From Endomicrobiales bacterium (GTDB taxonomy: Bacteria; Elusimicrobiota; Endomicrobiia; Endomicrobiales; JALOBY01), in the NCBI GenBank assembly GCA_023228045.1, contig JALOBY010000007.1:1-60230 (forward strand): a DNA stretch of 60,230 bases. Reading direction: 5' to 3'. Below, in pieces: positions 3,001 to 60,125 of the stretch. The stretch's first letter is position 1. Each line of letters starts with the position of its first letter. The translations under genes and the position numbers were made by a program. The notes under the pieces are model-generated. The model saw nothing but the letters and a program-made list of their open reading frames with translations, was not told the DNA's origin and did not search any database.

Positions 3001-4830
3001 AACCACTTGGTGATGCCGGCAATGTAAGCACATTTGCAACACTGCTGTATCCCGGTGAAACAACAAGTTCATTATTTATTGCGCCAACTCTATAGGCATA
3101 GTATGTATCGGCACTTAAACTGGTATCGCTATAACTCGTGCCGGTAACACTTGCAACAAATACACTATCTCTTTCAAGGCGATACGAATTTGCCCCAGTA
3201 TTCGCCCAGCTAAGTGTAATTGAACTTACATTAACGGCGTTAACACTTACCGATGAAGGTATAATTGCATAAGTGTATTTAGCATCACTGTTTGATGCAC
3301 CTGATATTCCACTTATGTTACCTGCTTTTACATATCTTGTGTATTGTGTGTTGCTGCTTAAACCAACTTCAAGCCATTGTGTCACACCCTCTACATTTCC
3401 AACTTTACTGTCATCAGTGCCATTGTATATCGCATAGTATGTTGCATTCGCACTTAATGTCCAACTCCATTGTATTGACCCCGTGCTTTGTACTGCTCCA
3501 CTAAATGAGCCTGGCGCAGCTGGCGGAGCGGTGTTTATTGTAATATCAATACCTAAACTATTAAATTGTGATGCTACAGGAACAGAATCTGCGTAAATGC
3601 TGTAATATTCGTTTGAATCTAACCGACCATTTTCGTTTACATCAACAAAAGCAGTCACTTTATAAAAACTATATGGTGTTGAAACCCTTAACGAGTAATC
3701 CCATGCCGGTGTGTTTGGAGTGCTTTCAGTAACATTATAAGGGCTTGCACCGCCAAAAGAAGGAGATGCAATTACAACAATGTTGCCTATTTGTTCAGAG
3801 TTGTTGGTTATATGTCCGCTTATAGCGCCAAAATCAAATAAAGAGAAATCCACATTTGAAGCAGTATGTGATGATGCGCTTAAATATATTGGCGTTGCAT
3901 TCCACCAATTTGACGCTTGCCTAAAATAACCTATCGGCTCATAGCCGTCCGGCACATCATTATCATTTTCATCAATCAGCGCCATAACATAGAAAGTATT
4001 TGGAAGCGACAAATTGCTAAAACTATAATACCCTGCACCAGTGAAAGAAGTTATAGGCGTTACAAAACTCATAACACCATTATCGCCGATAGCGCTTGCT
4101 ATAGCAACTTTATATACGCCGCCAACAAAAGAGCCATTGTAACTCATAATACCGGATATTGTTCCGGAAGTTATCGGCAATGCCTCAGAAGCACAGGCAC
4201 TTGAGATATTTGAAACTGCAGACCAATTACTCACTTCATCCGCGTTCCAAATTGCAAAATAATATGTTACACCCGAAGTAAGCGGGCCGACAATTTGCGA
4301 AACCACATCGCCCGACGTAACATTTGAAGTTGAAACGGTTATTTGCGCAAGCGGATAATTCCAGCCAGAGAGTGAGTCCCCACTTGCCACTGTGGCATAT
4401 TGCACTTTATATTGTGACCCTACCGGCAAACTTCCAAACATTCCATCGTCACCGGGAGCACCCCATGAAAGTTTAACATTGCCACCGAGTGTATCTGCCG
4501 TTCTTGCCACAAGTGTAGTAACCGCCGCTGGAGCTATTGTATCACCAAGCAAAATATAGGCAGAACTCATTGCGGATGTATTTGACCAACAATCAACATT
4601 TTCATCTCTTGTCCAAAGCTTAAAGTAATAGGTAGTATTGCCGCTAAGCGCACTACTGCTAAGTGTAACGCTTTGAGAATCTCCCGGGTTAATTGAACTG
4701 GTTGTTACAATTATAATCTGCGCAGAAGCAGTGCTCCATACAACGCCCTGACTTTGCGAATATTGCAAGGCAAACACACTACCAGCTTGCAATTGGTTTA
4801 ACATACCATCATCACCCGGTGCCCCAGGAC
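1..4830 (-). CDS. Giant cell-surface protein, C-terminal continuation, partial (runs off window start). It is the same gene as 4812..8615 read in the +1 frame. It contains FN3-like repeats with a WQWNHG..GYNLY motif, a parallel beta-helix-like region, and more FN3 repeats.
   Basis: I translated the minus-strand frame by hand and it stays open from ~4830 to the window edge. FN3 domain motifs recur throughout. The frame is open across the upstream stop codon and re-creates the domain motif SW-APGDDGM at the junction. The ORF track lists no such ORF, presumably because there is no stop inside the window. Confidence 0.7.
2250..3270 (-). repeat. Tandem duplication of two ~510 bp units (~170 codons each) inside the giant gene, encoding near-identical FN3 domain pairs.
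   Basis: The strings ttcaatgtaagccgtaac / ttcaatgtaggctgttac and ccactgccattttattgtgtctg recur at an offset of ~508-510 bp. The translated units KYTYAIIPSSVSVNAVNVSS...GTDTIKWQWNHG.TYVSGYNLY are ~90% identical. Confidence 0.8.
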
Positions 4831-7800
4831 ACAATTGCGGTACGAGGAGTTGAGCTTGCAACAGCCACAAAATAAGTCGGGGTTGAAGGTGCGACAAGGC
4901 AATTAGTATTAATTTCTGTGGAATTGTAATTTCCTGCCAAATCATAGCCGCTAAGGGTTAAATTCAAAGAGGTGTTGTCAGTTAAAATATTAAGTGGTGA
5001 ACCATTAAGTGAAACACTATTCTCTCCCGTTATTAACTGGTCACCCAACAATGGAAAGTTTGACCCACTTGCAGAAAACATTGTTGTAGCTACAGGAATT
5101 GTGTAACAATCTTCGCTAAGTGAGTAATCAACATCAAAAAAACCATTTCTAAAAATTAATCGCTCACTGCCAGCTGGGTGTGTAATTTGAAGAGTCGGAT
5201 TTGTGCGGTCAACTGTAATTGCGGCTGTGCTTTTTACGATATGGAGCCCATCAGTAAATTCAAAAATCAAAGTATGCACACCTTCTGAAATTTGCCCATA
5301 CCAACTCCCGTTTTTATCATAGAGGGAACCGTTCATCCATTGCGAACTTCCTAAAGTACCAGTTGTGTATGCAAGGTTGTAAGGTACACTTGAGGAGGCT
5401 GAAGCAGGGAAGTAATCAACCCCATCATCAAACACACCATTGTCGTTCATATCAAAATAAAGCGAGTAATTACCATTTTCGTTGGCACTAAAATCAGACT
5501 GTAAACTGGGCTCAAGTGAACCGGGGTTAGCGTTTAAGTGTTTATCATGATTGCCGTCTAAATCATAACAATTAAATGAAATAACTGGTGTAGATGTATC
5601 AACCCTAAATGTCCAACTTATATTTGAGATATTTGGTATTGTGGCTTTATCGCGAACACTTAGGTAAACAGTGTGGCTTCCCTCGCTAAGGCCAGAGCAG
5701 TCGTAAGAAAGCTCGCCATTTGAAGGGTTAAAGCTTGGGGTTACCGGCGAAGCGTCTAAACTTATAGTTGTTGAAGCGACATTAATACCGGTTCCATCAC
5801 CATCGGATAGGGTTGCAAGTATAGTTGGATTGATATTGCCTATAAGACCGTTTATTGCCGGCGAAATAAAACTTATTACAGGTTTTTGTGTGTCAAGGGA
5901 CGGGTCTGGGGTTAAATATATGTGGTTTAGCGATGCCGTTGAAAGAATTCCAGTCCAAGTATTAAAACCTGTCACATTAACTCTTGCAGAAAATGTGGAA
6001 CTAACTGGCAAGTACTTTACCTGAAAATTTCCTCCAGAATCGCTATTGCTAAAACCAATTAGATAAGCTCCAGATATAATTTCAATAGACGCATCACTTA
6101 TAGTAGAGCTTGAAGCCGCATTTTTAACATCTCCAGAAACGCTAACTCCGGTACTGATTATTATATCAGCGTTAAGTGTGCCTTCAGCTACACCAATTGT
6201 TCGCGCGATTACCTGCTGTTCTGCTTCGTTGAAAATACCAATACCATAAACTAACCCGGTAGCAACATTTATACCATAATGGCCTGTAGAAGTAGCCATA
6301 GAAACAAAATCAGGGTTACTTTTTGGTGCAGGCGAACCCGCAGGTAAGGCAAATATCATAAACGGCCCGCTATGCGTTGTATTATTGATAATATTGCCAG
6401 AAATACCACCTAAGGGCAAAGTTAAAAGAAAATTTTTGGTGTTTGTACCCGGGTGAGTTATAAATGAAAGGTCAGAAGTTTGAGAGATATGACCATCATT
6501 CTTATCTGAAACATGAAGTTCCATCCCTGTGCCAGTTGAAACACCACCAATATAATAGTAACCACCAGTATCGGTTATTACGCTATATTGTGATACCTCT
6601 CTTTGCGTATCTGACCACATAAGATAAACATTAATGTTACCCAAAGGGCCACCGGTATCTGACACAGTACCTTCAATAGCAACAGCTGGAGGTAGGTTAA
6701 TGTTAACATCTGGGTTTACGGAAAAGTTTGTTGTTTGATTTTCAAAAACATCTATATCTGTGTGATATGCAAAACCAAGAGATGAGTCAACACCTGAAGG
6801 GTTTGCCATAACAATATAAGAGCCGGCGGCAAGGTTAGAAAATGTGTAATAACCTTCTGAGTTTGCTTGAGTACTGTTTGAACTGCTGCCATCATGCAAA
6901 TCGTTAAGTGAGTTGTAAAGTGAAACGCTGCAATTTGCAACAGGCATTGTTCCAGAAAGTATCTGACCGTATATTGAGCCACCATATGCAAGCACAAAAT
7001 CAATCTGCGTTGTGGTGCCTGGCAAAAGCGTTCTATTAGCAGTTATATTGCCAAAACCATCTTTAGAAACTGTAATACTTTCACTGCCCGAGCTTACCTG
7101 GTCCACATAATTTCCGGAAGCATCTGTATTAGTTTGCTCCCAAATAGTTGGACTGTTGCTCATCGTTTCTAAGTATGAAGTTATTGTTGCGTCTGCAATT
7201 GGCGCGCCGGTGTAAAAATTTGTTACTGTTCCATGTATTTTTACACCCTTTGTTAGAGTAATAGTGCCAAAATCTACCCCGTAAATATTTCCAATTTGCT
7301 TTGCTGCACTATAAGCGCTTGCATAAGGGCTTGAAACTGCCATTAACATATATGTAGAGTTATCCGCATTTATGCCAAACACTTTAAAGTTACCGCTTGC
7401 ATCGCAAACACCATAGCGGTCCCAACCAGAATAATAACTCTCCGACCACTGCTTGCCAACACTCACAACCGCTCCTGCGCAAGGCAAGCCATTGGCAATA
7501 ACTTTACCAGTTGCAAAACCCGAAACCGCCCAAGCGCCCAAACTTCCTTGCTCAGTTGTGGTATTACCATAGCTATCTGTCACTTTTATCTGAGCGTAAT
7601 AGGTCGTGTTGTTATCTACTATGTTCTTTGATATCATCATCTGGCCTGGATCTGGGGTGCCTGTGTTTTGTTTACTGCCATCCCATTGCACACGCGGGCT
7701 TGCGTATGAATCTGCCCAAATATTACTATTTACTACATAGTCATTTTGGTCAAAAACCCCATCTAAATTTGTATCTATTGTGAAAACATAGCTACCATCT

Positions 7801-8917: not shown

Positions 8918-9517
8918 ATGAGTGATGTTTTAATTTTAAACAGAAACTTTTATGCAATTCAAATAACCAGCTGGCAAAGAGCGCTTAGCCTGCTTTATAT
9001 TGACCATGCCTCAGTGGTTGATGATGACTACAAAACCTATTCTTTCAACGACTGGAAAGAACTTTCACAAATGGTGGGTTCTACACCTTCGGGCTTTGTT
9101 ACAACACCAAACTTTAAAATTGCCATACCGGATGTAATTGCATTAAAATTTTACGACAAACTCCCTGTTTCCGAGGTAAAATTTACCAGAAGAAACATTT
9201 ACGAACACTTCGGATACAAATGCTGTTACTGCGGCAACAAATTTGAAACAAACAACTTAAATTTAGACCATGTTACCCCAAAAAGCAAGGGCGGTAAAAC
9301 CAACTGGGAAAACATTGTAACCTCTTGTATACCCTGCAACCTAAAAAAAAGCAACCACTTGCCAAGCGAAGCAGGAATGAAACTTCTAACTATCCCATCA
9401 AAACCAAAGTGGCGCGGGCCAATGGCTATTGCATTTAACTCACCAATAAAAATAAAAATATCTTGGCAAAAATTTATAGATAACGCTTACTGGAATACAG
9501 AGTTAGAAAACAGTTAA
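8918..9517 (+). CDS. HNH endonuclease family protein (199 aa).
   Basis: HNH motif [46 protein letters not shown] (C-x2-C ... DH ... N ... C-x2-C). Confidence 0.8.
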
Positions 9518-20838: not shown

Positions 20839-20898
20839 CCCCTCACCTCAATCCTCTCCCTCGAGGGGAGAGGAAGCCCGAAGGGCAGGTGAGGGTGA
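20839..20898. repeat. Family-D nested hairpin element (cccctcacct ... cctctccctcgaggggagagg ... aggtgagggtg) in the proA-moxR intergenic region.
   Basis: Perfect nested inverted repeats. Related copies lie at 26734-26860 and 35845-35945. Confidence 0.7.
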
Positions 20899-26860: not shown

Positions 26861-26904
26861 ATGTTGAATGAGACATGGAGATAAAAATAGTTTGTCATCT
26901 TAAA

Positions 26905-27134
26905 ATCCCACTTGGCTGCTTATGAGCGAGTGTTTTTTGGGGTCTTCGTCTGCGGATGTTTGAGACCACCACAAAGTGGTGAGACGAGTTTCCGCAGACG
27001 CAAAAAAACACGAGAGAATAGCCGCGCGGGTGTATTTCTTTTGGTTACTTTTCTTTGGACAGCAAAGAAAAGTATCACGGGGCGCAGGCCGAAGGTCCCG
27101 CCAAAGGCGGTGAGGCAGAATAGCCCCGCGACTT
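26905..27134 (-). mobile_element. Family-A MITE-like repeat, copy 1 (inverted, right end truncated, with a ~30 bp extra hairpin insert).
   Basis: Its reverse complement matches 47974-48190 and 38787-39230 (aagtcgcggggctattctgcc ... gtgatacttttctttg ... taaccaaaagaaat ...). Confidence 0.75.
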
Positions 27135-27269
27135 TGAAAGGTTTTATAGTTACTAATCCAAAGTTTAGCTCTCGCTAAAGGCAGGTTAGCCAAGCGGGAC
27201 TTTAAATAAAAAAGATGCAACACTTATATTTCAAATAATATTTAACTGCAACAATAAATTAATAAGCCA

Positions 27270-29198
27270 ATGAAAAAAACCATAATCGTATTATCATTTA
27301 TTCTAATTTCTTGCGTATCTTATGCCACAGCAGAGCTTAAAGTTTCTGCCGCGGTAGATAAAACAAGCGTTGCTGTTGGTGAAGAAATTTTGCTAACCAT
27401 AGATATATCCGGGCAGTCGGTAAACATACCCAGTATAGAAGTTCCCGCAATAGCAAACTTTTCAATATACTCCTCAGGCCGCTCGCAAAGCATGTCTTTT
27501 GTAAATGGACAGGTTTCAAACTCTATTTCTTTTAGGTATGTTATAATTCCAAATGCTCAGGGGAAATTTACAATCCCGGCTTTAAACTTAAAGTATGACG
27601 GCAAAACATACTCTACACAAAATATAGAAATATCAGTAAGCGCATCGCAAAAAGCGAGTGTTACATCAGCGAACCAAAACGTAACTAAAGTAACAACACA
27701 AGATGCAACTTTGAGCGATAAAGCGATATTTGTTAAAGCCATAACGGATAAATCAAGCGTCTATGTAAATGAACAATTAACTTACTATTTTCACTTATAT
27801 AGAAGGGTAGATTTTTTAAACCAGCCGCAGTTTGCGCCACCCGGCTTCAGTGGTTTTTGGAGTGAGTCATACCCACCCACAAACAATATGACCGAAATAA
27901 ACGGCCGGCAATATATGCTAAGCGAATTAAAATTTGTACTTTTTCCAACATCGCCTGGCAAAATAACAATTGACCCATCAACACTTCAATGCCAAATTGC
28001 ATCAAACAACCCGGATGACTTCTTTGATGGTTTTTTTACCATGGGCAAACCTATTACACTGCGCACAAACTCAATAACAATAAATGTTTACCCTCTACCT
28101 AATAAAGATAAACCGGCTAATTTTTCGGGCGCTGTTGGTCAATACGAAATACAAGCCCAAAGCGATAAATCAAACACAAAAACAAACGACCCTGTAACAT
28201 TCAGCATTATTGTTTCTGGTTCTGGTAACATTAAAACACTGCCCGAGCCACAAATGCCGCAACTTATGGAGTTTAGAAAATTTGACACCGCAAGCACTTA
28301 CGACATTAATAAATCAGCTGGAAAATTTACGGGGTCAAAAACATTTAAAACACTCCTTTCACCGCAAAGCAGTGGAACAAAAATCATACCGGCAATAGAG
28401 TTTTCTTATTTTGACCCACAATCAAAAAGTTATAAAAAGATTTATTCAAAACCTATTTCTATAAATGTTACGCAGGGCACAACCGCAAACACGACAACTA
28501 ATTTTTCTTTTGCCTCCAGTGAAGTAAAACTGTTAAATTCAGACATCCGCTACATTAAAGATACTTTCACCCGGGTAAAAAATTACCCACTAAAAAATAT
28601 TCTGCTTATAATTAATTTATCTGCTCTTATACTGCTAATTCTATCTTTAATATTTGCTACGCGCGCACGCACGCTTCAAGAAAATGTTCACCTTTCAAGA
28701 AAGCTTGGCGCAAGCTCAAAAGCAAAAAAATATTTAAAAGAGGCCTCAAAACTATTCGAATCTGAGTTTTACAATAAGTGTGTGGACCGAGACGAGCGAG
28801 GCCGAGGATTTTTCAACTCAAAAAATGAGAGCGATGTGTTAACATCGGGCAAACTTTTTGAGGAAGAAAAAGTCCGGCATCGTTTGTCAAATCCCGCATC
28901 CTATTGTAAAACCCAGATTAAACATAATCACTCGGGCTTTTATTCCGCACTCAGCCGTGCTTTGCGTAACTTTATTGCGGATAAGCTTAATATATCGGCA
29001 GAGGGCCTTACAACAAAAGAGATATCAGCGACTTTCAAAAAACATAAAGTTCCGATTGAACTTGCCAATAAAACTTTTGAACTAATTGCTGAGTGTGACT
29101 TTGCCTGCTTTGCACCCTACACCCCGCAAAAAACTCAAATGCAAGATGCTTTAAAATCGGCCCAGTTAATTATAAATTCTTTGGAGAAGTTTTTATGA
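27270..29198 (+). CDS. batD: BatD (oxygen-tolerance protein), carrying an in-frame 52-codon family-B MITE insertion.
   Basis: 642 aa. Signal peptide, large extracytoplasmic domain, one TM helix near residue 440 and a cytoplasmic tail. The segment 28761-28916 is a repeat element (see findings). Confidence 0.75.
   Translation: MKKTIIVLSFILISCVSYATAELKVSAAVDKTSVAVGEEILLTIDISGQSVNIPSIEVPAIANFSIYSSGRSQSMSFVNGQVSNSISFRYVIIPNAQGKFTIPALNLKYDGKTYSTQNIEISVSASQKASVTSANQNVTKVTTQDATLSDKAIFVKAITDKSSVYVNEQLTYYFHLYRRVDFLNQPQFAPPGFSGFWSESYPPTNNMTEINGRQYMLSELKFVLFPTSPGKITIDPSTLQCQIASNNPDDFFDGFFTMGKPITLRTNSITINVYPLPNKDKPANFSGAVGQYEIQAQSDKSNTKTNDPVTFSIIVSGSGNIKTLPEPQMPQLMEFRKFDTASTYDINKSAGKFTGSKTFKTLLSPQSSGTKIIPAIEFSYFDPQSKSYKKIYSKPISINVTQGTTANTTTNFSFASSEVKLLNSDIRYIKDTFTRVKNYPLKNILLIINLSALILLILSLIFATRARTLQENVHLSRKLGASSKAKKYLKEASKLFESEFYNKCVDRDERGRGFFNSKNESDVLTSGKLFEEEKVRHRLSNPASYCKTQIKHNHSGFYSALSRALRNFIADKLNISAEGLTTKEISATFKKHKVPIELANKTFELIAECDFACFAPYTPQKTQMQDALKSAQLIINSLEKFL
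28761..28916 (+). mobile_element. Family-B MITE (156 bp, 18-bp imperfect TIRs tctgRgttttacaataRg) inserted in frame within batD.
   Basis: The reverse complement of 38853-39021 matches, including the TIRs. The length is exactly 156 bp (52 codons) and the element starts at codon boundary 498 of batD. Confidence 0.8.
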
Positions 29199-35640: not shown

Positions 35641-35790
35641 ATTGTCATCTCGATGAGCGAAGCGACGAAACAATCTTGGTGTCATTGCGAGCGAAGCGTG
35701 GCAATCTAATAATCAGGACGAGATTGCTTCACCCCTGATGGGTTTTCGCCTTTGGCGAGATCTAGCCCCTTGGGCTGACGCAATGACAGT
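35641..35790 (-). mobile_element. Family-C MITE-like repeat copy (ctgtcattgcgtcagccc ... gaagcaatct ... cgcttcgctcgcaatgacac).
   Basis: Its reverse complement aligns with 43417-43640 and 59947-60125. Confidence 0.7.
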
Positions 35791-35804: not shown

Positions 35805-35979
35805 CCGCCCAGCAAGCTGGGCGGTATCAATGGTGCTAATTCTTCTTCCTCTCCCTCGATGGGAGAGGATTGAGGTGAGGGTGGACATTCGATAACAGGT
35901 CTCATTTGACCCCTCATCCTAACCTTCTCCCGCAAAGGGGAGAAGGAATTATTTGGTAACCGCCCAGCAAGCTGGGCGG
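35805..35979. repeat. Composite of two identical 20-bp palindromes (ccgcccagcaagctgggcgg at 35805-35824 and 35960-35979) flanking family-D hairpins (cctctccctcgatgggagagg and ccttctcccgcaaaggggagaagg).
   Basis: Read directly from the sequence. Confidence 0.8.
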
Positions 35980-36002: not shown

Positions 36003-38501
36003 CTATAACTGCCACTTTTTTACTTTTTCGCTATATTGCTCCAAATAATCTTTTGCTACTTTTTCCTTATCCGACTCTACCCAGACATGAAAGAATGCTT
36101 CATCGGGGTCTGGCAATAACAACACCCAACCGCCTTTTAAGAAAATCTTAACACCGTCTATAAGTTCAGCTTTTGCTTTTGATGCTTCTTGCATAGCATA
36201 GCGCATCGTCTGGCCTTTTTTATCCCATGCGCAAGGAATTTTTTTGTGCAATACCTCAAAAGCAGGTATCTCGCGGCTAAGACGGTTTAGCCGGTTTTTT
36301 TCTTTTGCCATTAGCTCAAGAATTTTTGCGGTTGCGTACATTGCGTCAAAAGCAGGCTGGAACTCCGGGAAAATAAAACCGCCGGAGCAATCACCAACAA
36401 AGCAAACACCTTTGATGCGCGACGCGGAAATTATCTGCCTTGGGCTTGTTGCAGTTCTTATAACCGTGGCATTATACTTTCGCGCCAGCTCATCAATTAC
36501 TGATGATACTGTAACCGGCACTGCAATTGTGGCATTTGGAGTACTTCTCATAACCAAATCTGCCACCAAAATGAGTGCGAGATTGTTTGGCACTATTCTG
36601 CCGCGCTCATCAATTAAAAAAATCTTTTCCGCGCCATTGTCAATTAAAAATCCGGCATCGGCCTTGAGAGTTGTAACTATGTCGGAAAGTTGTTCAAGAG
36701 AGTGCTTAAACTCGTGTTCTGTTTTTGTTATTTTGTATGGGTTAACATAGGCGTTTAAGGCAACAACCTCTGCCTCAAGCGGCCCTAAAATTGCAGGGAA
36801 AATCATTGACGCGGAGGAATACGAATAGTCAAAAACAATTTTAAAGTTGGCTTTTTTTATCTCATCTTTATTTATAGCCTTAAAAAAACCTGTTTTATAA
36901 TACTCCTGAGCTCTTGATGGCACAGTTATATCACCAACATCGTCCAAACTGGCTCGTTTAAAATCCTCTCTTAGAAAAAGTTGTTCTATGGATTTTTCTT
37001 TAGAAATTGGCAGGTCGCCGCCATCAGAGTCAAAAATTTTTATATCCATAAGCCGTTTGTCAAACGGAGATAAGCGCACATGTATTCCGCCAACTTCGCC
37101 TTCCTTTCCAATTTCGTAACGCACAACCGGAATTGGCGCGGTTTGCAAATCGCCAACTTTTACGCCAGCGCTAAGCAGCCCCGATATCATTGTGCGCTTT
37201 ATCATTCGCGACGAACCATGGGCATCTCTTGAAGTTACCACATAAGCGCCGGCACCAATAAATGCCCCGTATGCCGCACCAACTTTGGTGGCAAACTCAG
37301 GTGTTATTTCTATGTTGCCAAGGCCTGTAATGCCATAGGCGCCAAAAAGCTCTTTATTCCATTTTTCTCCCCACACCAAACTTGTGGCAAGTGTCGCGCC
37401 TTCTTCTACTGTTTTATCGGGCCAGATTTTTATGTATGCCCTGATTACGGCCTCGTTGCCTATTTTGCAATTATCGGCAACCACTGTACCAACTTGTAAA
37501 ACAGCCCTGTCGCCTATTGAGGTATTTTTTGCAACAACACTTTCTTTTAAGCGTGCCTCGCGCCCAACGCTAACACCATCCCAAAGTATTGAACCGTAAA
37601 GGTTCGCGCCTTCACCAACTTTTACACTGTTGCCAATTACACAGTTGCCTACAACAACGCCTTTGGCAATAAAGCAATTACTGCCTATTATAACCCGTTC
37701 ATTTATTTCGGCACCTTCTTCTATGGTAGTACCTTCTCCAACTATAAAACTTTTGGCGCCCGATATAACCTTTCTGCCGCTTATGCTAAGGTTTATTTTA
37801 CCTTCTAAAATATCGTAATGGCCGGTACGGTATTCGTCTAAATTGCCAATATCTTTCCAGTAACCGCCTGCGGTATGACCATAAAGCCCTTTACCTTGCA
37901 AAAGAAGCGATGGGTATAAATCTTTTGAGAAATCAAATGGTTTCTCATCCGGTATCTCTTCTAATACTTTCGGCTCTAAAATGTAAATGCCAGTATTTAT
38001 TGTGTCAGAAAAAACTTCACCCCAAGAGGGTTTTTCTAAAAATCTTTCAATTTTGCCATCTGGCTGCGTTATTACAACACCGTACTGCAAAGGGTTTGCA
38101 ACACGGGTAAGCACCATGGTGGCAACAGCATTTTTTTTCTTATGATAATCAAGCGCCTCGGTGATATCTATGTCCGTTAAAACATCGCCTGAAATAACAA
38201 TAAATGTGTCTTTTAAGTGGTCTTTCGCGCAACGCACACTGCCGGCAGTTCCCAAATCTGCTTTTGGGGTTATGTATTTTAGTTTTACCCCAAACTCAGA
38301 ACCATCGCCAAAGTAGTCAGTAATAACATCTGGCTGATAGTAAAGCATCATTACAATGTCTGTAATTTGGTGTTTTTTTAGAAGGTTTATAATGTGATAA
38401 AGGATTGGCCTGTTTGCTACAGGTACCATGGGCTTTGGGAGATTACAGCTTAAAGGTCTTAACCGTGTTCCAAAACCACCGGCCATAATTACGGCTTGCA
38501 T
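36003..38501 (-). CDS. Bifunctional sugar-1-phosphate nucleotidyltransferase (N-terminal NTP-transferase plus left-handed beta-helix) fused to a C-terminal PGM/PMM-like domain (832 aa).
   Basis: MAGGFGTRLRPLS motif. Hexapeptide repeats. The C-terminal half aligns to the PGM superfamily (VVTSRDAHGSS ~ GRDTRxSS) but shows RLSPFD where TASHNP is expected. Confidence 0.75.
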   Translation of the reverse strand: MQAVIMAGGFGTRLRPLSCNLPKPMVPVANRPILYHIINLLKKHQITDIVMMLYYQPDVITDYFGDGSEFGVKLKYITPKADLGTAGSVRCAKDHLKDTFIVISGDVLTDIDITEALDYHKKKNAVATMVLTRVANPLQYGVVITQPDGKIERFLEKPSWGEVFSDTINTGIYILEPKVLEEIPDEKPFDFSKDLYPSLLLQGKGLYGHTAGGYWKDIGNLDEYRTGHYDILEGKINLSISGRKVISGAKSFIVGEGTTIEEGAEINERVIIGSNCFIAKGVVVGNCVIGNSVKVGEGANLYGSILWDGVSVGREARLKESVVAKNTSIGDRAVLQVGTVVADNCKIGNEAVIRAYIKIWPDKTVEEGATLATSLVWGEKWNKELFGAYGITGLGNIEITPEFATKVGAAYGAFIGAGAYVVTSRDAHGSSRMIKRTMISGLLSAGVKVGDLQTAPIPVVRYEIGKEGEVGGIHVRLSPFDKRLMDIKIFDSDGGDLPISKEKSIEQLFLREDFKRASLDDVGDITVPSRAQEYYKTGFFKAINKDEIKKANFKIVFDYSYSSASMIFPAILGPLEAEVVALNAYVNPYKITKTEHEFKHSLEQLSDIVTTLKADAGFLIDNGAEKIFLIDERGRIVPNNLALILVADLVMRSTPNATIAVPVTVSSVIDELARKYNATVIRTATSPRQIISASRIKGVCFVGDCSGGFIFPEFQPAFDAMYATAKILELMAKEKNRLNRLSREIPAFEVLHKKIPCAWDKKGQTMRYAMQEASKAKAELIDGVKIFLKGGWVLLLPDPDEAFFHVWVESDKEKVAKDYLEQYSEKVKKWQL

Positions 38502-38786
38502 AACTTTCTCCTGGTATAATATTCATTATACCTTTTGTTTCCAAAATTGCATTTTGATATATTTTTTCAGTTAACGGATCTATTTGTTCCATCCGTGTAG
38601 TCAAGACATCCTGAATCTTACAGAATGTCTATAAGAAATTATTGTGATAAAAAATGCTAATTGATGGTACAAAATTCGCCATCAAAAGGCAAGATTATTG
38701 TTTTATGGGTAATTTGTTCTTTAAGTCGGAGATTTTTGTTTTTTTGCCACAACTGCCCAAATTAATTTTGACTACTGAAAATCAAA

Positions 38787-39230
38787 GTCGCGGGGCTATC
38801 CTGTCAGCCTCGGGCTGACGCCCCCGTAATACTTTTCTTTGCATGCCCAAAGTTACACCCAGAGTTTACAATAGGATGCGGGATTCGACAAACGATGCCG
38901 GACTTTTTCTTCCTCAAAAAAGCTCGACCGATGTTCACACATCGCTCTCTCTTTTTGAGTTGAAAAACCCTCGGCCTCGCTCGTCTCGGTCCACACACCT
39001 ATTGCAAAATCTGGGTTGAAGTAACCAAAAGAAATGCACCCACGGTGGCTATTCACTCACATTTTTTTGGCGGCTGCGGAACTCGCCTCGCCACTTTGTG
39101 GCGGGCTCAGGCAGTCCTCACCGAAAACTCCACAAAAATGCTCGTTCATTATCAGCCAAAGTGGGGATAAAGTTAGTAAGGCAAAAAATTTGTCACCTCG
39201 ACGAGTGAAGTGAGGCAGGATAGCCCCGCC
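38787..39230 (+). mobile_element. Family-A MITE, full-length copy with terminal inverted repeats (gcggggctatcctg ... caggatagccccgc). It carries a nested family-B MITE at 38853-39021. The M48 protease stop codon falls inside the right-hand TIR.
   Basis: Alignment with the copy at 47974-48190. The extra internal ~165 bp is the family-B element, with TIRs cccagagtttacaatagg / cctattgcaaaatctggg. Confidence 0.8.
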
Positions 39231-39231
39231 A

Positions 39232-40467
39232 TTATTTTCTATCTATAAGTGCTTGTATTCGCATAAGCACAGGAGGGTGGGTGTAGTCAAATAATACTTT
39301 AACACTGTGGGGTGTGAGGTTTGAAAGGTTATCCACGCTAAGTTTTTTTAAGGCGTTTAGCATATCACTACTGTTTCCAACACTACTTGCAGCAAAGGCA
39401 TCGGCTTCGTACTCATGTTTTCTTGAAAAGTAATTACTAATCGCAGAAAAAAACAAATTAATAACAGGATAAAGGATCATAAATGCAAATAACCCCGCAT
39501 AAATAGAATAGGTTTTAACATTCAATGCGTATGAGAAATTTTCATTTGTTGCGAAATACCCTGCTAAAAAAAGACCAATAGCGGAAAATATAAGTGATAG
39601 GGCAAACTGTTTTATAATATGTCGTTTTTTGTAATGCCCAATCTCATGTGCAAGTATGGAAACAATTTCAGTTGTTGTGTGTTTTGCAATTAGAGTGTCA
39701 AAAAGAGCAATTTTTCTAAATCTGCCAAAACCTGTAAAAAAAGCGTTTGTTTTAGCCGACCGGCGCGAGCCGTCCATTTTGTAAATTCCCTGCATTTTAA
39801 AGTTTTCTGATTTTGCAAAATTTAACACTGCGTTTTTTAACTCTCCCTCTTCTAATGGAATAAATTTATTAAATAACGGCATAATTAACGCAGGCCAGAT
39901 ATATATAAGCAGAACCTCAAAAATAAGCATAAATACCCAGCATAAAATCCAGCCGGAAAAACCAAATTTTTGAAAAATATAAAGTACACCAAAAAGCAAT
40001 ATAGCTCCTAAAACTGTTTGAAGAATAAAGCTCTTAATGAAATCTCCAATAAAAGTTCGTGCGTTCATTTTATTAAAACCATACTTTTCCTCTAAGACAA
40101 AAACCTTGTATAGTGAAAATGGCAAACTTAACAACTCTGAAATTAAAAAAATTATCCCAAAGAAAATTAAACCGGTTAATATTGGATTTAAGGCAAAACC
40201 TCTTGCCATAATATCTATTTTTTCAAAAAAACCAAACATTAACGCTAAAACAGTAATAACTCCCATAAAAACTGTGTTAAATACTGTAAACTTTGTGTTG
40301 TCTTTAAGGTAACCTTGAGCTTTCGCGTAGCGCTCATTATCATAAACACCAATAAATTCATCGGGCACTTCTTTTTTTAGCGCAGAGATGTTTAGCGCTT
40401 CAACAAGTAAGCGCACAATCAAAGATAAAACTATTGAACTTATAATCACCACTGTAAAAATAGACAT
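39232..40467 (-). CDS. M48 family (Ste24/HtpX-like) zinc metalloprotease.
   Basis: HEIGHYKKRH HEXXH motif. N-terminal multi-TM region. Confidence 0.8.
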   Translation of the reverse strand: MSIFTVVIISSIVLSLIVRLLVEALNISALKKEVPDEFIGVYDNERYAKAQGYLKDNTKFTVFNTVFMGVITVLALMFGFFEKIDIMARGFALNPILTGLIFFGIIFLISELLSLPFSLYKVFVLEEKYGFNKMNARTFIGDFIKSFILQTVLGAILLFGVLYIFQKFGFSGWILCWVFMLIFEVLLIYIWPALIMPLFNKFIPLEEGELKNAVLNFAKSENFKMQGIYKMDGSRRSAKTNAFFTGFGRFRKIALFDTLIAKHTTTEIVSILAHEIGHYKKRHIIKQFALSLIFSAIGLFLAGYFATNENFSYALNVKTYSIYAGLFAFMILYPVINLFFSAISNYFSRKHEYEADAFAASSVGNSSDMLNALKKLSVDNLSNLTPHSVKVLFDYTHPPVLMRIQALIDRK

Positions 40468-42157: not shown

Positions 42158-43300
42158 TCAGATATTATTTTTCAAAAGCACTTCTTCCGCTGCCGCAACA
42201 GCTTTGCCTTTTTGCACATTGTACCCAAGTTTTGTAAGCACCATTTCAAGACAGGCAAAACCAACAAGCAAATCTGCTTTTGTGATGTAACCCATATGAG
42301 CAAAACGAATTATTTTTCCTTTAAGTATGCCCTGCCCACCTGCTATTGATATACCAAATTCTTCTCTTAACAACTTTACAATTTTGCCGCCTTCAATACC
42401 ATCTGGAACACGGGCACTTGTAACAACTTCACAAGGTCTTTGCGCAAAAAGTTCCATTCCAATAGCTTGCATACCTGCTCTTGTGGCGGCCGCCATTACC
42501 TTATACTCTTTTTGCATATTTTCAAGCCCCGTGGCCTCAATCATTTTTATTGCCTCTGCAAGTGAAACTATAAGAGTAATTGCCGGCGTAAATGGAGTTT
42601 CGTTATCAGCAAGCGATTTTTTCATTTTGCGCCAGTCCCAGTAAAACCTTGGGAGCTTTGCATTTTCTGCCAAAAGCCACGCTTTCTTACTTATTGAAAC
42701 AAACGCAAGGCCGGGTGCGAGCATAAGGCCCTTTTGAGAACCGGTTACAACAACATCAATATGCCAAGCATCGGTTTTAAGCTCTTGGCCGACCAAACCA
42801 GATATTGCATCTACCACAAGCACTGCCTGCGATGAATGAACAATTTTACCTATTGTTTCTATGTCGTTTACAACACCTGTTGAGGTTTCAACATGAGTGG
42901 TATAAACAACCTTAACACCCGGGTTTGCCTTGAGCGCTTTTTCAATTTCATTTGGATTGACAGCTTTGCCCCACTCTGTGTCAACAATTATCGGATTTAT
43001 TCCGTAAGCACTTAAAAGTTTTACCCAACGTTCTCCAAAATTTCCACTTTGGGCAACTATTACATCATCGCCCGGGCTAAGCAGATTTACAACTGACGAC
43101 TCCATTGCACCCGTACCGGAAGATGCCATTATCAGCACATCGTTTTGAGTACAAAAAACATATTTAAGGCCTTCTATAACTTTACCAAATATTGCCGCAA
43201 ATTCTGCTGTGCGATGGTGAATAATTGGTTTTGCTCCTGCTAAAGCAACCTCTGTTGGAATGGGTGTTGGTCCAGGTGTTAAAAGATAATGTTTTTTCAT
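42158..43300 (-). CDS. Class V aminotransferase (phosphoserine / serine-glyoxylate aminotransferase type).
   Basis: 380 aa. PLP lysine region TGSQKGLMLAPG. Adjacent to serA. Confidence 0.75.
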   Translation of the reverse strand: MKKHYLLTPGPTPIPTEVALAGAKPIIHHRTAEFAAIFGKVIEGLKYVFCTQNDVLIMASSGTGAMESSVVNLLSPGDDVIVAQSGNFGERWVKLLSAYGINPIIVDTEWGKAVNPNEIEKALKANPGVKVVYTTHVETSTGVVNDIETIGKIVHSSQAVLVVDAISGLVGQELKTDAWHIDVVVTGSQKGLMLAPGLAFVSISKKAWLLAENAKLPRFYWDWRKMKKSLADNETPFTPAITLIVSLAEAIKMIEATGLENMQKEYKVMAAATRAGMQAIGMELFAQRPCEVVTSARVPDGIEGGKIVKLLREEFGISIAGGQGILKGKIIRFAHMGYITKADLLVGFACLEMVLTKLGYNVQKGKAVAAAEEVLLKNNI

Positions 43301-43416
43301 TCTGCCTCCAATACAAAAATTATTTTACACTCAATAAAAACATTGTGAAATATTTCACAATGAAATACTATTAAAAAAAATTTGTTCTGTCAAATTAAAA
43401 TTTGAGACATGGTTTC

Positions 43417-43640
43417 TTTTTTAGCTGTCATTGCGTCAGCCCCCGCCTTTGGCGAGGTCTAGACAAGACTCAGGCTGACAAGGGGCTAGATCTCGCCAAA
43501 GGCGGAAATCCCGAATGGGTGAAGCAATCTTTTATTAACTGTTAGATTGCTTCGTCGCTATGCTTCTCGCAATGACAAAACACATTGAAAGAAACATTGC
43601 CTCGGGCTGATTCGCTTCGCTCACCCGAGATGACACACCA
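43417..43640 (+). mobile_element. Family-C MITE-like repeat copy, with an internal inverted duplication.
   Basis: Alignment to 59947-60125 and to the reverse complement of 35641-35790. Confidence 0.7.
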
Positions 43641-43653
43641 AGAAAAAAATAGC

Positions 43654-46044
43654 TTACTTTGTTGCCTTTTCAAGCCCAAGCGATAACACTTCGTCCATAT
43701 GCGCTACAGGTATCATTTTTATTTTTTTTAAAATATCTTTTGGAATTTCAATAAGGTCTTTTTTGTTGCCCTCCGGAAAAAGAATTGTTGTTATGCCATC
43801 ACGGTAAGCGGCAAGTGTTTTTTCTCTTAGTCCGCCTATGGCAAGCACCCTGCCACGCAAAGTAATTTCACCTGTCATTGCAAGATCTTTTTTTACCGCC
43901 CTGCCGGTGCTTACCGATGCAAGAGCGGTTGCCAGCGCTATACCGGCACTTGGCCCGTCTTTAGGAACAGCACCTTCGGGCACATGAATATGAAAATCTA
44001 AGTCCTTAAAGCTGTCTTCGTCAATTTTTAATTTTTTTGCGGAAGAACGCACATAAGATAACGCTGCCTGAGCCGACTCCTTCATAACATCTCCAAGTTT
44101 GCCGGTTAAGCTTAATATGCCTTTACCTTTCATTTTATTTACTTCAATTGTAAGGGTTTCCCCTCCGGCTTCCGTCCAGGCAAGGCCAGTTGCCACACCA
44201 ATGTTGTTTGCAGCTACACTGTCTTTTGAAAACTTTGGTATACCCAAAAACTTTTCTAAGTTTTCAGGGGTTATTTTAATAGAAGTTTTTTTCTCCAAGT
44301 CCATTGCTTTTGTAGCTTTTCGGCAGAGGTTCGCGCTTTCTCTCTCCAGATTTCTTACACCTGCCTCGTGCGTATAGTTTTTAATTAGCAGTTCCATGGT
44401 TTTAGGTGTAATAACAAGCTCTCCATCTTTTAAACCGTGTTCTTTCATTTGCTTTGGCAGTAGAAATTTTTCTGCTATTTTTAACTTTTCTTCTAATGTA
44501 TAACCCGGGAACCTTATAACCTCCAAACGGTCTAATAGAGTGCTTGGAATGTTGTAAAGCGTGTTTGCGGTTGTAATAAACATTACCTTTGAAAGGTCGT
44601 AGTCAAGGTCAAGGTAGTGGTCTACAAAAGCATAGTTCTGCTCTGGGTCAAGCACTTCAAGCAATGCCGAAGAAGGGTCGCCCCTAAAATCGCTGCCCAT
44701 TTTGTCAATTTCATCTAAAATAAATACAGGGTTGTTTGATTTTGCTTTGCGCATAGATTGTATTATTCTGCCGGGCAATGCGCCAATGTAAGTTCTTCTA
44801 TGTCCTCTTATTTCGGCCTCATCTCGCACACCACCCATAGATATGCGTACAAAATTTCTGCCTAAACTTCTGGCAATTGATTTAGCTATAGATGTTTTGC
44901 CGACACCCGGAGGCCCGACAAAACAAAGAATAGGGCCTTTTATTTTTTGAACGCGTTTAAGTACAGCCAGGTATTCAGTAACTCGTTCTTTTACTTTTTC
45001 TAAACCAAAGTGGTCTTGGTCTAATATAGTTTGTGCTTGCCTAAGGTCGTAGTTATCTTTTGTACTTTCGTGCCACGGAAGTGCTATAAGCCAGTCAATA
45101 TATGTTCTTATTACCGTTGCCTCAGGTGAAAAAGGCATCATTTTTTCTAATCTGGCAATTTCTTTATCGGCCGCTTCCTGTGCCTCTTTAGACATTTTTG
45201 CGGCTTTAATTTTTGCTTTTAATTCTTCTAACTCCTTGGCATAATCATCTTTTTGTCGCAGTTCTTTTTGTATGGCCTTCATCTGTTCTGTAAGGTAGTA
45301 CTCTTTTTGGCTTTTCTCTATTTGAGTACGCACGCGGCTTTGTATGCGCCTATCAATATTTAAAATTTCAATTTCAGAACTTAAAATTTGCACAAGCTTT
45401 TCAAGGCGTTCACTTGGGTTTGCAAGTTCAAGAATAGATTGTTTTTCAAAAACTTTTACGGACATGTGAGAAGCAATTGTATCTGCCAGGCGGCCCGCGT
45501 CGTTTATGTTTGCAACGGCAACACCTATTTCAAGCGGGATTCTTGCGTTTAATTTAACATACTGTTCAAAAAGTGAAACCGAACGGCGCATAAGCGCTTG
45601 CGTTTCAGGAGTTAGCACCGAAACTTCGCTAAGCAGGTTCAACCCAACTTCCACATAGCCCCTTTCGTGCATATGAAAGTCGGTCCAACGAGCGCGCAAC
45701 AAACCCTCTACCAAAACTTTCAAAGTGCCATCGGGCATTTTTAGTAACTGCAACACATCGGCAACAGTACCTATTTGGTAAATATCATCAGGAGAAGGGT
45801 CTTCTATTTGCAGTTGTTTTTGCGTTGCAAGAAATATTAAGCGATTACCCGACATTGCCTCTTCAAGCGCTTTTATAGATTTATCGCGGCCAACGGCAAG
45901 TGGCACAACCATGGCAGGGAAAACAATCAAATCACGCACCGGTAATAATGGAAGCTTATTTGGTATATCTTCTAATTTGCTTGTTTTGGTTTGTCTATCT
46001 ACTTCGCTCATATTTTCACTCCACTCTAAACCCGGCTTTTGCAA
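43654..46044 (-). CDS. lon: ATP-dependent Lon protease.
   Basis: Walker [10 protein letters not shown]. Ser-Lys dyad region DGPSAG. 796 aa. Confidence 0.9.
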
Positions 46045-47973: not shown

Positions 47974-48190
47974 GTCGCGGGGCTATTCTGCCCCTGCACC
48001 CCTGTGATACTTTTCTTTGTATGCCCAAAGAAAAGTAACCAAAAGAAATGCACCCCCTGATGGCTATTCACTCGTTTTTTTTGGCGGCTGTGGAACTCGC
48101 CTCGCCACTGCGTGTCGGACTCAGACAGTCCTCGCCGAAACCTCCAAAAAAATACTCGTTCATTATCAGCCAATGGGGAATAACAAGCGA
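47974..48190 (+). mobile_element. Family-A MITE copy (right end truncated, no B insert) in the tig-clpP intergenic region.
   Basis: Alignment to 38787-39230. Confidence 0.75.
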
Positions 48191-54911: not shown

Positions 54912-55975
54912 TTATGAAAATATCAGGGAAAAAACAATAAAATAGACAACCATAAAAACAAAACCAATCGGCAACCCTATTTTCGCCCATTCCCAACTTG
55001 TTATCTTAAGCCTTCCTGCAGAAATTATATTTGGAATATTCCCGGGAATAAGCATTCCACCTGATATCAAAAACCCTATAAGTATATACTTAATTTGAGG
55101 CAAATTCATTTTAGGGCTTATTTCTGCAGCAGCCAAAGTTGCATTGTCTAAAACAGCCGAAAGAGAATTTATCCAGTAAAGTAGCGTAGTCGGAAATTTT
55201 ATTATGTACATATCAACAATAGGTTTGAAGCCGGAACCAAGAAGTATCAAAGCCATGATAAAGATATAAACTTTCCCAGCATAAACAAAAATTTCTTTAA
55301 TATTACTGCTTTTTTCTTCTACTAATCCTTTTATGTTTTCTCCTTTTTTAACAGAAGGGTTTATTATACTGCCTATTATTGCTAAAAGCAAAATGCCCGG
55401 CAAGACATATAGGCCAAGCTCCCTGAATAAGAAAAAGAAATCGGCATTGAATGGCTCTCCTTTTAGCTTTGCTATAGTAATGGTTGATAGCGGTTCTCCT
55501 ATAGGGGTAAGCACTGCGCCCAGCCCAATAGAAAAGCAAGAGAGTACCGTAAGCTTTATTTCATATTTCTTGTCCAATTTTAATGCACTAATAATTTCAA
55601 CAAGTATTATAGCTGCCATAATAGCCGTAATAATACTTGAAAGCAATCCTAAAACCATAATCAACACAAAACAGAATAATTTTGAACCGATTTTACGCTC
55701 TATATTAACGACGGTATTTGTTATTTTATTTCTGAAAAAATAAACTAAAAACCCTATCGTAATAACAGCCAAAGTTATCATTATTGGTTCAACTAATGAT
55801 TCCCTAATAAGGTGCATTGACCACGCCGGTTCTATTCCCCAAAAATGCGAAATACTTACCACTAACACACCCATGATAAAAAGAAATATTTCCAAATTTT
55901 TTTCTATAACATGCAATGTAAGAGGTAAAATTAATACAAGAATAATGGCACTGATCAACCCTATTTCTATCACTA
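54912..55975 (-). CDS. Polytopic membrane protein, transporter-like (possibly the DUF1646 cation-transporter family). It starts at a GTG codon.
   Basis: 353 aa with ~10 predicted TM helices. The first codon is GTG at 55973-55975. Confidence 0.5.
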
Positions 55976-56298: not shown

Positions 56299-56365
56299 GC
56301 CACCCCTGAATTTTTATCCAGTAAGTGGCAATAAAAAACCGCCCACTGGTTATAAACCAGATGGC
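56299..56365 (-). terminator. Two tandem stem-loops with U-tracts on the minus strand (CCGCCATCTGG ... CCAGTGGGCGG-TTTTTT and GCCAC ... GTGGC-TTTTAATTTT), lying between motif X copy 2 and the small ORF.
   Basis: Read directly from the sequence. Confidence 0.5.
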
Positions 56366-56367
56366 GG

Positions 56368-56425
56368 CCCGACCATCCAAATCCTCCGAAAGCATTAAAG
56401 CTTTCGAACCCTGTTGGTTTGCTAT
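56368..56425 (-). promoter_or_regulatory. Conserved upstream motif X, copy 2 (contains the perfect hairpin cgaaagc-attaaa-gctttcg).
   Basis: Alignment with 54804-54860. Confidence 0.45.
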
Positions 56426-59946: not shown

Positions 59947-60125
59947 CGTCTTTTCGTCAGCCCAAGAGGCTAGACCTCGCCAAAAGCGGGAAATCCGAAG
60001 GGATGAAGCAATCTCATCTTAACTGTTAGATTGCCACGGGCTAAAGCCCTCACAATGATTTTAGATTGCTTCGTCACTAATGACACCAGATTGCCACGCT
60101 TCGCTCGCAATGGGCATAATACTCA
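59947..60125 (+). mobile_element. Family-C MITE-like repeat copy.
   Basis: Alignment with 43417-43640 (cgtcagccc ... ctcgccaaaagcgggaaatccgaagggatgaagcaatct ... cgcttcgctcgcaatg). Confidence 0.7.

Follow-up and report, generated by a model that had tools for sequence, protein, structure and literature searches.

The window, by which we mean the whole 60,230-nucleotide stretch of DNA analysed here, belongs to an Endomicrobiales bacterium known from a metagenome-assembled genome (MAG), and its sequence is matched by the ENA contig ERZ27247363:k141_2091023, which is 61,446 bp long. All of its open reading frames (ORFs) that were checked have housekeeping functions (the bat operon, lon/clpX/clpP/tig, serA, hisS and the trehalose genes). 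Scattered among them are copies of two repeat families, A (end sequence GTCGCGGGGCTATTCTG) and B (end sequence CCCGGAATTTGCAATAGG), with a GC content of 43-52% against 39% for the window. The segment of primary interest, 38787-39230, is a copy of A with a copy of B inside it, situated between the genes for an M48 metallopeptidase and for a mannose-1-phosphate guanylyltransferase/phosphomannomutase fusion protein (Table 1).

Table 1. Genes, proteins and repeat features in the window, with the parts of the nested element in order
Feature	Position	Strand	Accession or remark
BatD			Protein MCK9582500.1, Endomicrobiales bacterium MAG
M48 peptidase			Protein MCK9582509.1, Endomicrobiales bacterium MAG
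Family-A copy 1	26886-27146	-	Between batC and batD; no right inverted repeat; orthologous copy in L004
Family-B MITE in batD	28756-28922	-	Core of 157 bp, 28761-28917; batD ORF 27270-29198 (+)
Mannose-1-phosphate guanylyltransferase/phosphomannomutase fusion gene	36003-38501	-	Downstream of the M48 gene and the element
Left end of family A	38787-38803	+	Canonical AAAGTC followed by GCGGGGCTATCCTG; terminus common to most other A copies
Variable GC-rich hairpin module	38804-38820	+	tcagcctcgggctgacg; missing from some A copies and of another kind in others
Conserved AT-rich hairpin of A	38831-38852	+	5' arm ACTTTTCTTTG, loop, start of 3' arm CAAAG
Family-B MITE	38853-39020	+	TTACA, 158-bp core at 38858-39015, TTGAA
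Right half of family A	39021-39172	+	Imperfect palindrome CCCACGGTGGCT...AGCCAAAGTGGG
Right-end module of A	39173-39215	+	AAGGCAAAAAATTTGTCACCTCGACGAGTGAAGTGAGG; homologous modules in L004, L026, L043 and L045
Right-hand inverted repeat of A	39216-39229	-	CAGGATAGCCCCGC on the + strand; at no other A locus
M48 metallopeptidase gene	39232-40467	-	Stop codon 39232-39234, 2 nt beyond the inverted repeat of A
Family-A copy 3	47974-48190	+	Between tig and clpP; no right inverted repeat

The A copy carries GCGGGGCTATCCTG at 38790-38803 on the forward strand and its exact reverse complement at 39216-39229, the two forming a perfect 14-nt inverted repeat. With up to two mismatches, this 14-mer has five matches in the window against 0.34 expected, a count reached by none of 100 shuffles. 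The initial annotation described the copy as bounded by terminal inverted repeats (TIRs), which is right for these 14 nt but not for the ‘gtc’ at 38787-38789, which lacks a right-side partner; it had also placed the stop codon of the M48 gene within the right-hand TIR, when the codon actually lies just outside it. The copy is collinear, as had been proposed, with the one at 47974-48190, from which two stretches align, of 103 nt (88%) and of 32 nt (91%), and also with copy 1, at 26886-27146 on the reverse strand. Its interior is interrupted by a block with its own TIRs of about 18-20 nt (CCCAGAGTTTACAATAGG and CCTATTGCAAAATCTGGG), which stands in place of the ‘aaaa’ of the canonical A sequence caaagAAAAgtaacc and splits the 3' arm of A's AT-rich hairpin. 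This block is indeed the element that also occupies batD, being ~88-90% identical to the core there, and the alignments of the copies bear out that small hairpin inserts inside the left end of A vary from copy to copy. Rfam covariance models gave no match at E <= 1 in 38600-39300, and none in A or B at gathering score.

Several other features of the window and of the related loci retrieved from metagenomes (L numbers) may be recorded here. An nhaA-I (Na+) riboswitch match of 52 bits lies on the reverse strand at 56359-56411, upstream of the gene for a DUF1646 membrane protein (54912-55973). A lone HNH endonuclease gene (199 aa, 8918-9517, forward strand) stands among housekeeping genes and is also present in L044. 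Positions 2331-2630 and 2838-3137 form a 300-nt direct repeat with 85% identity and 507 nt spacing, in a region for which no complete ORF is listed, possibly part of a repetitive gene that continues beyond the start of the window. In one sister strain (L043, 7909-9103) the M48 gene is present as two ORFs, apparently through a frameshift. L043 (3128-4670) and L047 (2876-4418) have a 221-aa ORF and an N6/N4 DNA methyltransferase between lon and an aminotransferase gene, both of which the window lacks.

Family B as a MITE

The invariant 19-mer AACGATGCCGGACTTTTTC was used to scan metagenomes for copies of B, and nhmmer was applied next; retrieval by an exact 19-mer biases the resulting sample, which comprises 21 copies at no fewer than 17 independent loci from many metagenomes. 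They can be aligned end to end, with a core running from CCCGGAATTTGCAATAGGA to CCTATTGCAAAATCCGGG that is usually 157 bp long (range 156-178 bp). Each of the 17 aligned copies has TIRs of ~20 nt, the arms of which have changed in a compensatory manner. RNAalifold predicts that the family folds as a single long hairpin extending over the entire element; of its 52 pairs, 24 show compensatory double changes, some of them in the central stem. On either side of the core lie 5 nt that are direct duplications of TTNAA-like targets. Left and right flanks agree at 63 of 80 positions, compared with 55.8 by random re-pairing, and 15 of 20,000 re-pairing shuffles reach 63. Flank pairs off the consensus are matched too, such as ATGAA/ATGAA and ATTAA/ATTAA. 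The element is of MITE size, under about 600 bp, and has no transposase ORF; translation in four frames gave no Pfam match. With its clear TIRs, 5-bp target-site duplications (TSDs) and an exact empty site in batD, B behaves like a classical MITE, and we conclude that it is a genuine one.

In mechanistic terms, B is a non-autonomous DNA transposon of ~157 bp that folds into one long imperfect hairpin; a DDE-type transposase making 5-bp staggered cuts at TTNAA-like targets presumably mobilises it in trans. The 5-bp TSD at TTNAA and the TIRs beginning with CC recall the IS1380 family, to which the cognate insertion sequence of B may belong. A cognate transposase with matching TIRs, which the initial annotation had envisaged, was found neither in the 60-kb window, where none of 26 ORFs searched encodes a transposase or recombinase, nor in the retrieved loci, where a fuzzy TIR search detected no autonomous B or A element. 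Scans of viral contigs for A and B likewise gave 0 matches.

Both families are dispersed, as had been supposed, and are not segmental duplications: A occupies 9 loci and B at least 17, with occupied and empty sites distinguishing strains that are 94-96% identical. It is true that repeats can give rise to chimeras in short-read MAG contigs and that one Logan contig ends within the element. However, the loci that hold copies are numerous and non-orthologous, have unrelated flanks and come from different samples and assemblers (JGI, ENA, Logan and NCBI); exact empty sites exist and TSDs are present; and a 14-nt repeat cannot mislead an assembly with k=141. The reading of the repeats as segmental duplications or metagenome-assembly artefacts instead of mobile families is extremely improbable, and we regard it as effectively refuted.

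The batD copy provides the empty site. Core and duplication together add 157 + 5 = 162 bp, that is 54 codons in frame, and the BatD ortholog P0005 (JGI 3300029286), which is 96% identical, is without exactly residues 498-551 (54 aa). The same is seen at the level of DNA, where L004 has CTATTTGAA directly followed by CATAAC, as against CTATTCGAA, 157 bp and TTAAACATAAT in the window. Peptides derived from B were sought more widely by six-frame and profile searches of a protein collection. Internal in-frame copies were found in an HhH-GPD/EndoIII-like protein, an M24 peptidase and a membrane protein, and C-terminal ones in a GATase, a Fic protein, an RRM protein and a 6-phosphogluconolactonase. 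The M24 Xaa-Pro peptidase, from Elusimicrobia bacterium RIFOXYB2_FULL_50_12, has an insertion of 160 + 5 bp with the TSD ATTAA, and exactly the same protein or allele recurs on 8 contigs. Four different frames of B are used across the host proteins. Genic copies are a minority, and copies with a length not divisible by three lie between genes. With core and duplication making 162 or 165 bp together and as many as four open frames, B is able to sit in genes and be translated; going by these reading frames, it is read through within real proteins in the manner of the Rickettsia palindromic elements (RPEs).

Three further loci show variations on this arrangement. L038 (655-1009) contains two B copies in direct tandem with a single TTAAA common to both. 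In L029 (2433-2602, the same locus as L040), an mnmA-like gene has its apparent ATG start doubled by the target duplication ATGAA, and translation could begin before B, reading through 55 extra codons. In the sister strain L004 (7214-7786), RsfS is called as 190 aa versus 118-120 aa, and a diverged, longer B-like element at its 5' end (7238-7461) is open in frame (peptide ...NRFENRDERDGGSFD...).

Family A and the A::B chimera

Family A is known from 9 distinct loci and is dispersed, modular, intergenic and non-coding. A six-frame protein search for it found nothing, and among GTDB representative contigs of species other than its own the left end had 9 chance-level matches, none homologous beyond the pattern; two Elusimicrobiota matches to the left end proved to be coding or 5'-UTR sequence. 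Occupancy varies between strains that are 94-96% identical (the window versus L004, L044 and L049): a copy lies downstream of manCB in L004 and L049, another between lon and the aminotransferase gene in L044 and L048, and between rsfS and hisS L004 has A copies on either side of a 1.8-kb insert where the window has 15 bp.

The copies are built from a conserved GC-hairpin terminus (AAAGTC-GCGGGGCTATTCTGCCCC), GC hairpins that some copies lack, an invariant AT hairpin with a 12-bp stem kept in all of them, and a palindromic right half. At the variable module position, a 40-nt block of GC hairpins distinguishes the copy in L043 from its ortholog in L045, and the identities of the A cores are star-like (82-93%). 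The right-hand inverted repeat is absent at eight of the nine loci, being perfect only at the M48 locus and degenerate there in the sister strains, and comparisons of filled and empty sites at rsfS-hisS and lon-aminotransferase, both of them complex, gave no clear TSD. On account of these two features the initial view that both repeats are MITEs, which stands for B with its TIRs, TSDs, size and empty site, applies to A only in part. A is a mobile or at least copied repeat, for which the status of a transposase-driven MITE is unproven: a modular intergenic element of ~215-280 bp. Its units are hairpins, with a REP-like one rich in GC at the terminus, small GC ones that vary between copies, the conserved 12-bp AT hairpin and the palindromic right half.

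A serious alternative, which we hold to be possible though short of probable, is that A is a REP/BIME-like mosaic of hairpin modules and not a transposase-driven MITE. It would then have spread by a Y1/HUH single-strand mechanism (of the RAYT or IS200/IS605 type) acting on the GC-rich terminal hairpin, or else by recombination between common hairpin modules. Its terminus, GT(C/A)GCGGGGC-TATTCT-GCCCC, has a GC hairpin after a GTAG-like tetranucleotide, a likeness that we take to be one to REPs; the left flank is always A-rich (..AAA/GTC); most copies have neither TIR nor TSD; and modules are shuffled between copies, with the L044 copy joining its flank at a common hairpin module and lacking a left end. 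Yet no RAYT or TnpA gene occurs in about 100 kb of related sequence, the inverted repeat at the M48 locus is clean, and A is about ten times the length of a REP.

Around the A copies there are smaller repeats and rearrangements. The L044 copy just mentioned (1727-2226, compared with window 43300-43654) has GAAT joined to TAGCCTTGGGCTGAC where the window has GAAT joined to CAGCCCGAGGC, which hints at recombination between hairpin modules. In L004 (7799-9596), the two A copies bounding the 1.8-kb rsfS-hisS insertion, which the window lacks, are in inverted orientation, and inner inverted repeats (GTGTCCCC.AGAATTC / AACATTCTAACTCCGTCCC) flank two lipoprotein-like ORFs of 113 and 203 aa; this segment was considered as an autonomous element and rejected, having only these two small ORFs and occurring nowhere else. 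A fixed orientation of A relative to the flanking genes, on which all three window copies agree, was also ruled out, six other loci being opposite. A third repeat family of ~72-91 nt (80-85% identity) is present at 35697-35787, 43479-43550 and 59948-60038 of the window, with 35683-35707 and 60088-60112 as further intervals, and adjoins hairpin modules of the GTCATTGCGAGCGAAGCGTGGCAATCT type. Modules of the similar form GTCAT...GA(A/G)ATC come after many of the A copies, the right end of A2 among them. Finally, CCCTCACCTCAATCCTCTCCCTCGAGGGGAGAGGAAG forms a 37-nt inverted pair at 20840-20876 and 35845-35881 (86% complementary), a small GC-rich palindromic repeat.

The nested arrangement recurs beyond the window. 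L026 and L032 have B at the identical position and in the same orientation within A, with identical junctions (CCCAAAG/TTACACC...GGGTTGAAG/TAACC), and the flanks of the three chimeras are unrelated. The copy at 38787-39230 is one of at least three A::B chimeras at non-orthologous loci. L026 and L032 come from one JGI metagenome (Ga0265297), and L032, a contig of 30,607 bp, is probably from the same NCBI MAG as the window. All three nested B copies combine mismatched TTACA/TTGAA flanks, an AGAG variant and a 158-nt core, a combination found in no other B copy. Identical junctions and common derived traits at three or more non-orthologous loci argue that A::B was copied as a unit. The simplest reading of the alignments is that B entered the 3' arm of the AT hairpin of A once and that the chimera was then copied by whatever copies A. 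Against it stand the target in A (caaagAAAAgtaacc), which is not TTNAA-like, and the TTACA/TTGAA flanks there, which match at only 3 of 5 positions. At 38787-39230 itself, B may have entered the resident A or have arrived by recombination with another chimera.

Were the AT hairpin of A a hotspot for B, the three cases could instead be independent, with local nesting in situ and a chimera that was never copied. The orthologous A in the sister strains is without B, as expected if B entered recently; the A modules around B differ among the three chimeras, L026 having a different middle hairpin; and the A-core identities define no chimera clade. Nevertheless, we consider this unlikely: all three chimeras agree in orientation and in their unusual, mismatched pair of flanks, their B copies have the AGAG variant and the 158-nt core in common, and the site within A is not TTNAA-like, unlike other B targets. 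Under copying of the chimera as a unit, the successive waves of activity that the initial annotation read from the nesting need qualification. B is indeed nested in A, but the same A::B junctions at two other loci, probably in the same genome, indicate that A was still being copied after B had entered it, which points to overlapping periods of activity.

Orientation of A at the M48 site

At the M48 site itself, the sister strains (L043/L049 and L045/L046/L047) have a B-less A in the opposite orientation, inserted at the same site, 2 nt after the same M48 stop codon. The inverted repeat forming the M48-side junction is identical in the window and in all of them, and the far repeat of the sister strains is degenerate, with an interruption of 5-6 nt (AGGATAG[TAACAG]CCCCGC). 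All strains have the non-canonical flank AATAATG on the M48 side and a canonical-type flank on the far side (AAAGTC in the window, AAATCT in the sisters). An independent Logan assembly agrees with the orientation of the window beside M48. As the outer flanks are unchanged across strains, inversion in situ, with breakpoints within the repeats, fits better than independent insertions, and an in-situ inversion of the A interior is the most likely explanation of the comparison: the interior would have flipped between the same two inverted repeats in the window relative to the sister strains.

This inversion bears on the proposal that the element supplies the terminator of the M48 gene. The right-end module of A contains, on the reverse strand, a 7-bp hairpin (39213-39193) followed by the T-run CAAATTTTTT, 19 nt after the M48 stop. 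The proposal is thus borne out as far as the presence of a hairpin and T-run goes, but the match is weak and at the level of consensus only. In the orientation of the sister strains the right-end module is at the far end and has decayed. In the orientation of the window, the element thus puts a weak terminator-like hairpin directly behind M48, and it may affect expression.

Segments that invert between short repeats also invite comparison with invertons (fimS, the Bacteroides polysaccharide promoters), which 38790-39229 resembles in its length of ~430 bp, its short inverted repeats, its occurrence in both orientations across strains and its position upstream of a polysaccharide-related gene. 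It could be an active DNA switch, flipped between the 14-nt repeats by a distant site-specific recombinase with the nested MITE as cargo. In that case flipping would gate the read-through from M48 into the mannose-activating guanylyltransferase/phosphomannomutase gene and vary the surface polysaccharide by phase variation, and the solo A copies would be dispersed half-sites. The perfect 14-nt repeats, the opposite interior at an identical site between unchanged outer flanks, the sugar-nucleotide enzyme encoded downstream, the strand-specific terminator-like hairpin within the segment and the break of an independent assembly inside the element all accord with such a switch. Unlike invertons, however, 38787-39230 has no promoter-like (sigma-70-like) site on either strand, the one at 38544-38516, before the guanylyltransferase/phosphomannomutase gene, lying outside the element; no recombinase is encoded nearby in the 60-kb window; each sample has one orientation, which differs only between strains; the far repeat is degenerate in all sister strains, suggesting an old, fixed event; and inversion is impossible at the other eight A loci, which have one repeat each. 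A present-day switch is therefore quite unlikely.

Taken as a whole, the account that we favour, and consider likely, combines a MITE (B), a modular repeat (A), copying of A::B as a unit, an inversion in situ and a weak terminator-like hairpin after M48.

Relation to known repeats and significance

Both A and B are new, but of known kinds of element. In its functional class B comes closest to the RPEs, which a review describes as palindromes of ~150 bp inserted in frame in unrelated housekeeping genes, read through as an extra peptide, with several open frames and no known transposase (Ogata et al., 2000; Ogata et al., 2002; PMC10969869). B shares with them the palindromic form, the in-frame insertion into genes, the read-through and the several open frames. 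It differs in its clear TIRs, 5-bp TSDs and exact empty site, and in its host phylum, Elusimicrobiota, as opposed to Rickettsia. To our knowledge, the Elusimicrobiota that harbour B are not obligate intracellular parasites. B equally resembles classical MITEs in being small, with TIRs, TSDs and hairpin-forming transcripts, in its intergenic and occasional in-frame intragenic insertions, and in possible terminator or sRNA effects. Such prokaryotic MITEs include Correia/NEMIS, ERIC and the Coxiella QMITEs (PMC10969869; PMC5896051).

For A, the resemblance to REP/BIME and REPIN-RAYT systems lies in the GC-rich terminal hairpin, the GTAG-like tetranucleotide and the intergenic mosaic of short hairpin motifs, and the differences in its much greater length and in that no RAYT was found. 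The pneumococcal BOX, RUP and SPRITE repeats, according to the same review, are modular, with variable numbers of hairpin modules, cluster between genes and insert into one another, some with terminator-like hairpins (Croucher et al., 2011; PMC10969869). A and B match them in modular hairpins, intergenic location and nesting, with no sequence relationship. A::B differs in that the nested product has been multiplied, with identical junctions at no fewer than three loci; we found no description of a copied nested product with identical junctions for BOX/RUP/SPRITE in that review (PMC10969869), and none of MITEs in Elusimicrobia in the literature searched.

In practical terms, the A and B repeats break short-read assemblies and inflate ORF calls, and they provide strain markers for Endomicrobiales populations. 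If the reading of A::B given above is correct, it shows that a nested product can itself become a replicating unit, which would complicate the dating of nested repeats by ‘successive waves’. Finally, B is a clean and datable example of a MITE that lengthens housekeeping proteins, by 54-55 residues in BatD, a DNA glycosylase-like protein and a PepP-like peptidase; and, since filled and empty alleles of B co-occur in related strains, the family offers a natural experiment on the tolerance of proteins to selfish insertions in bacteria other than Rickettsia.
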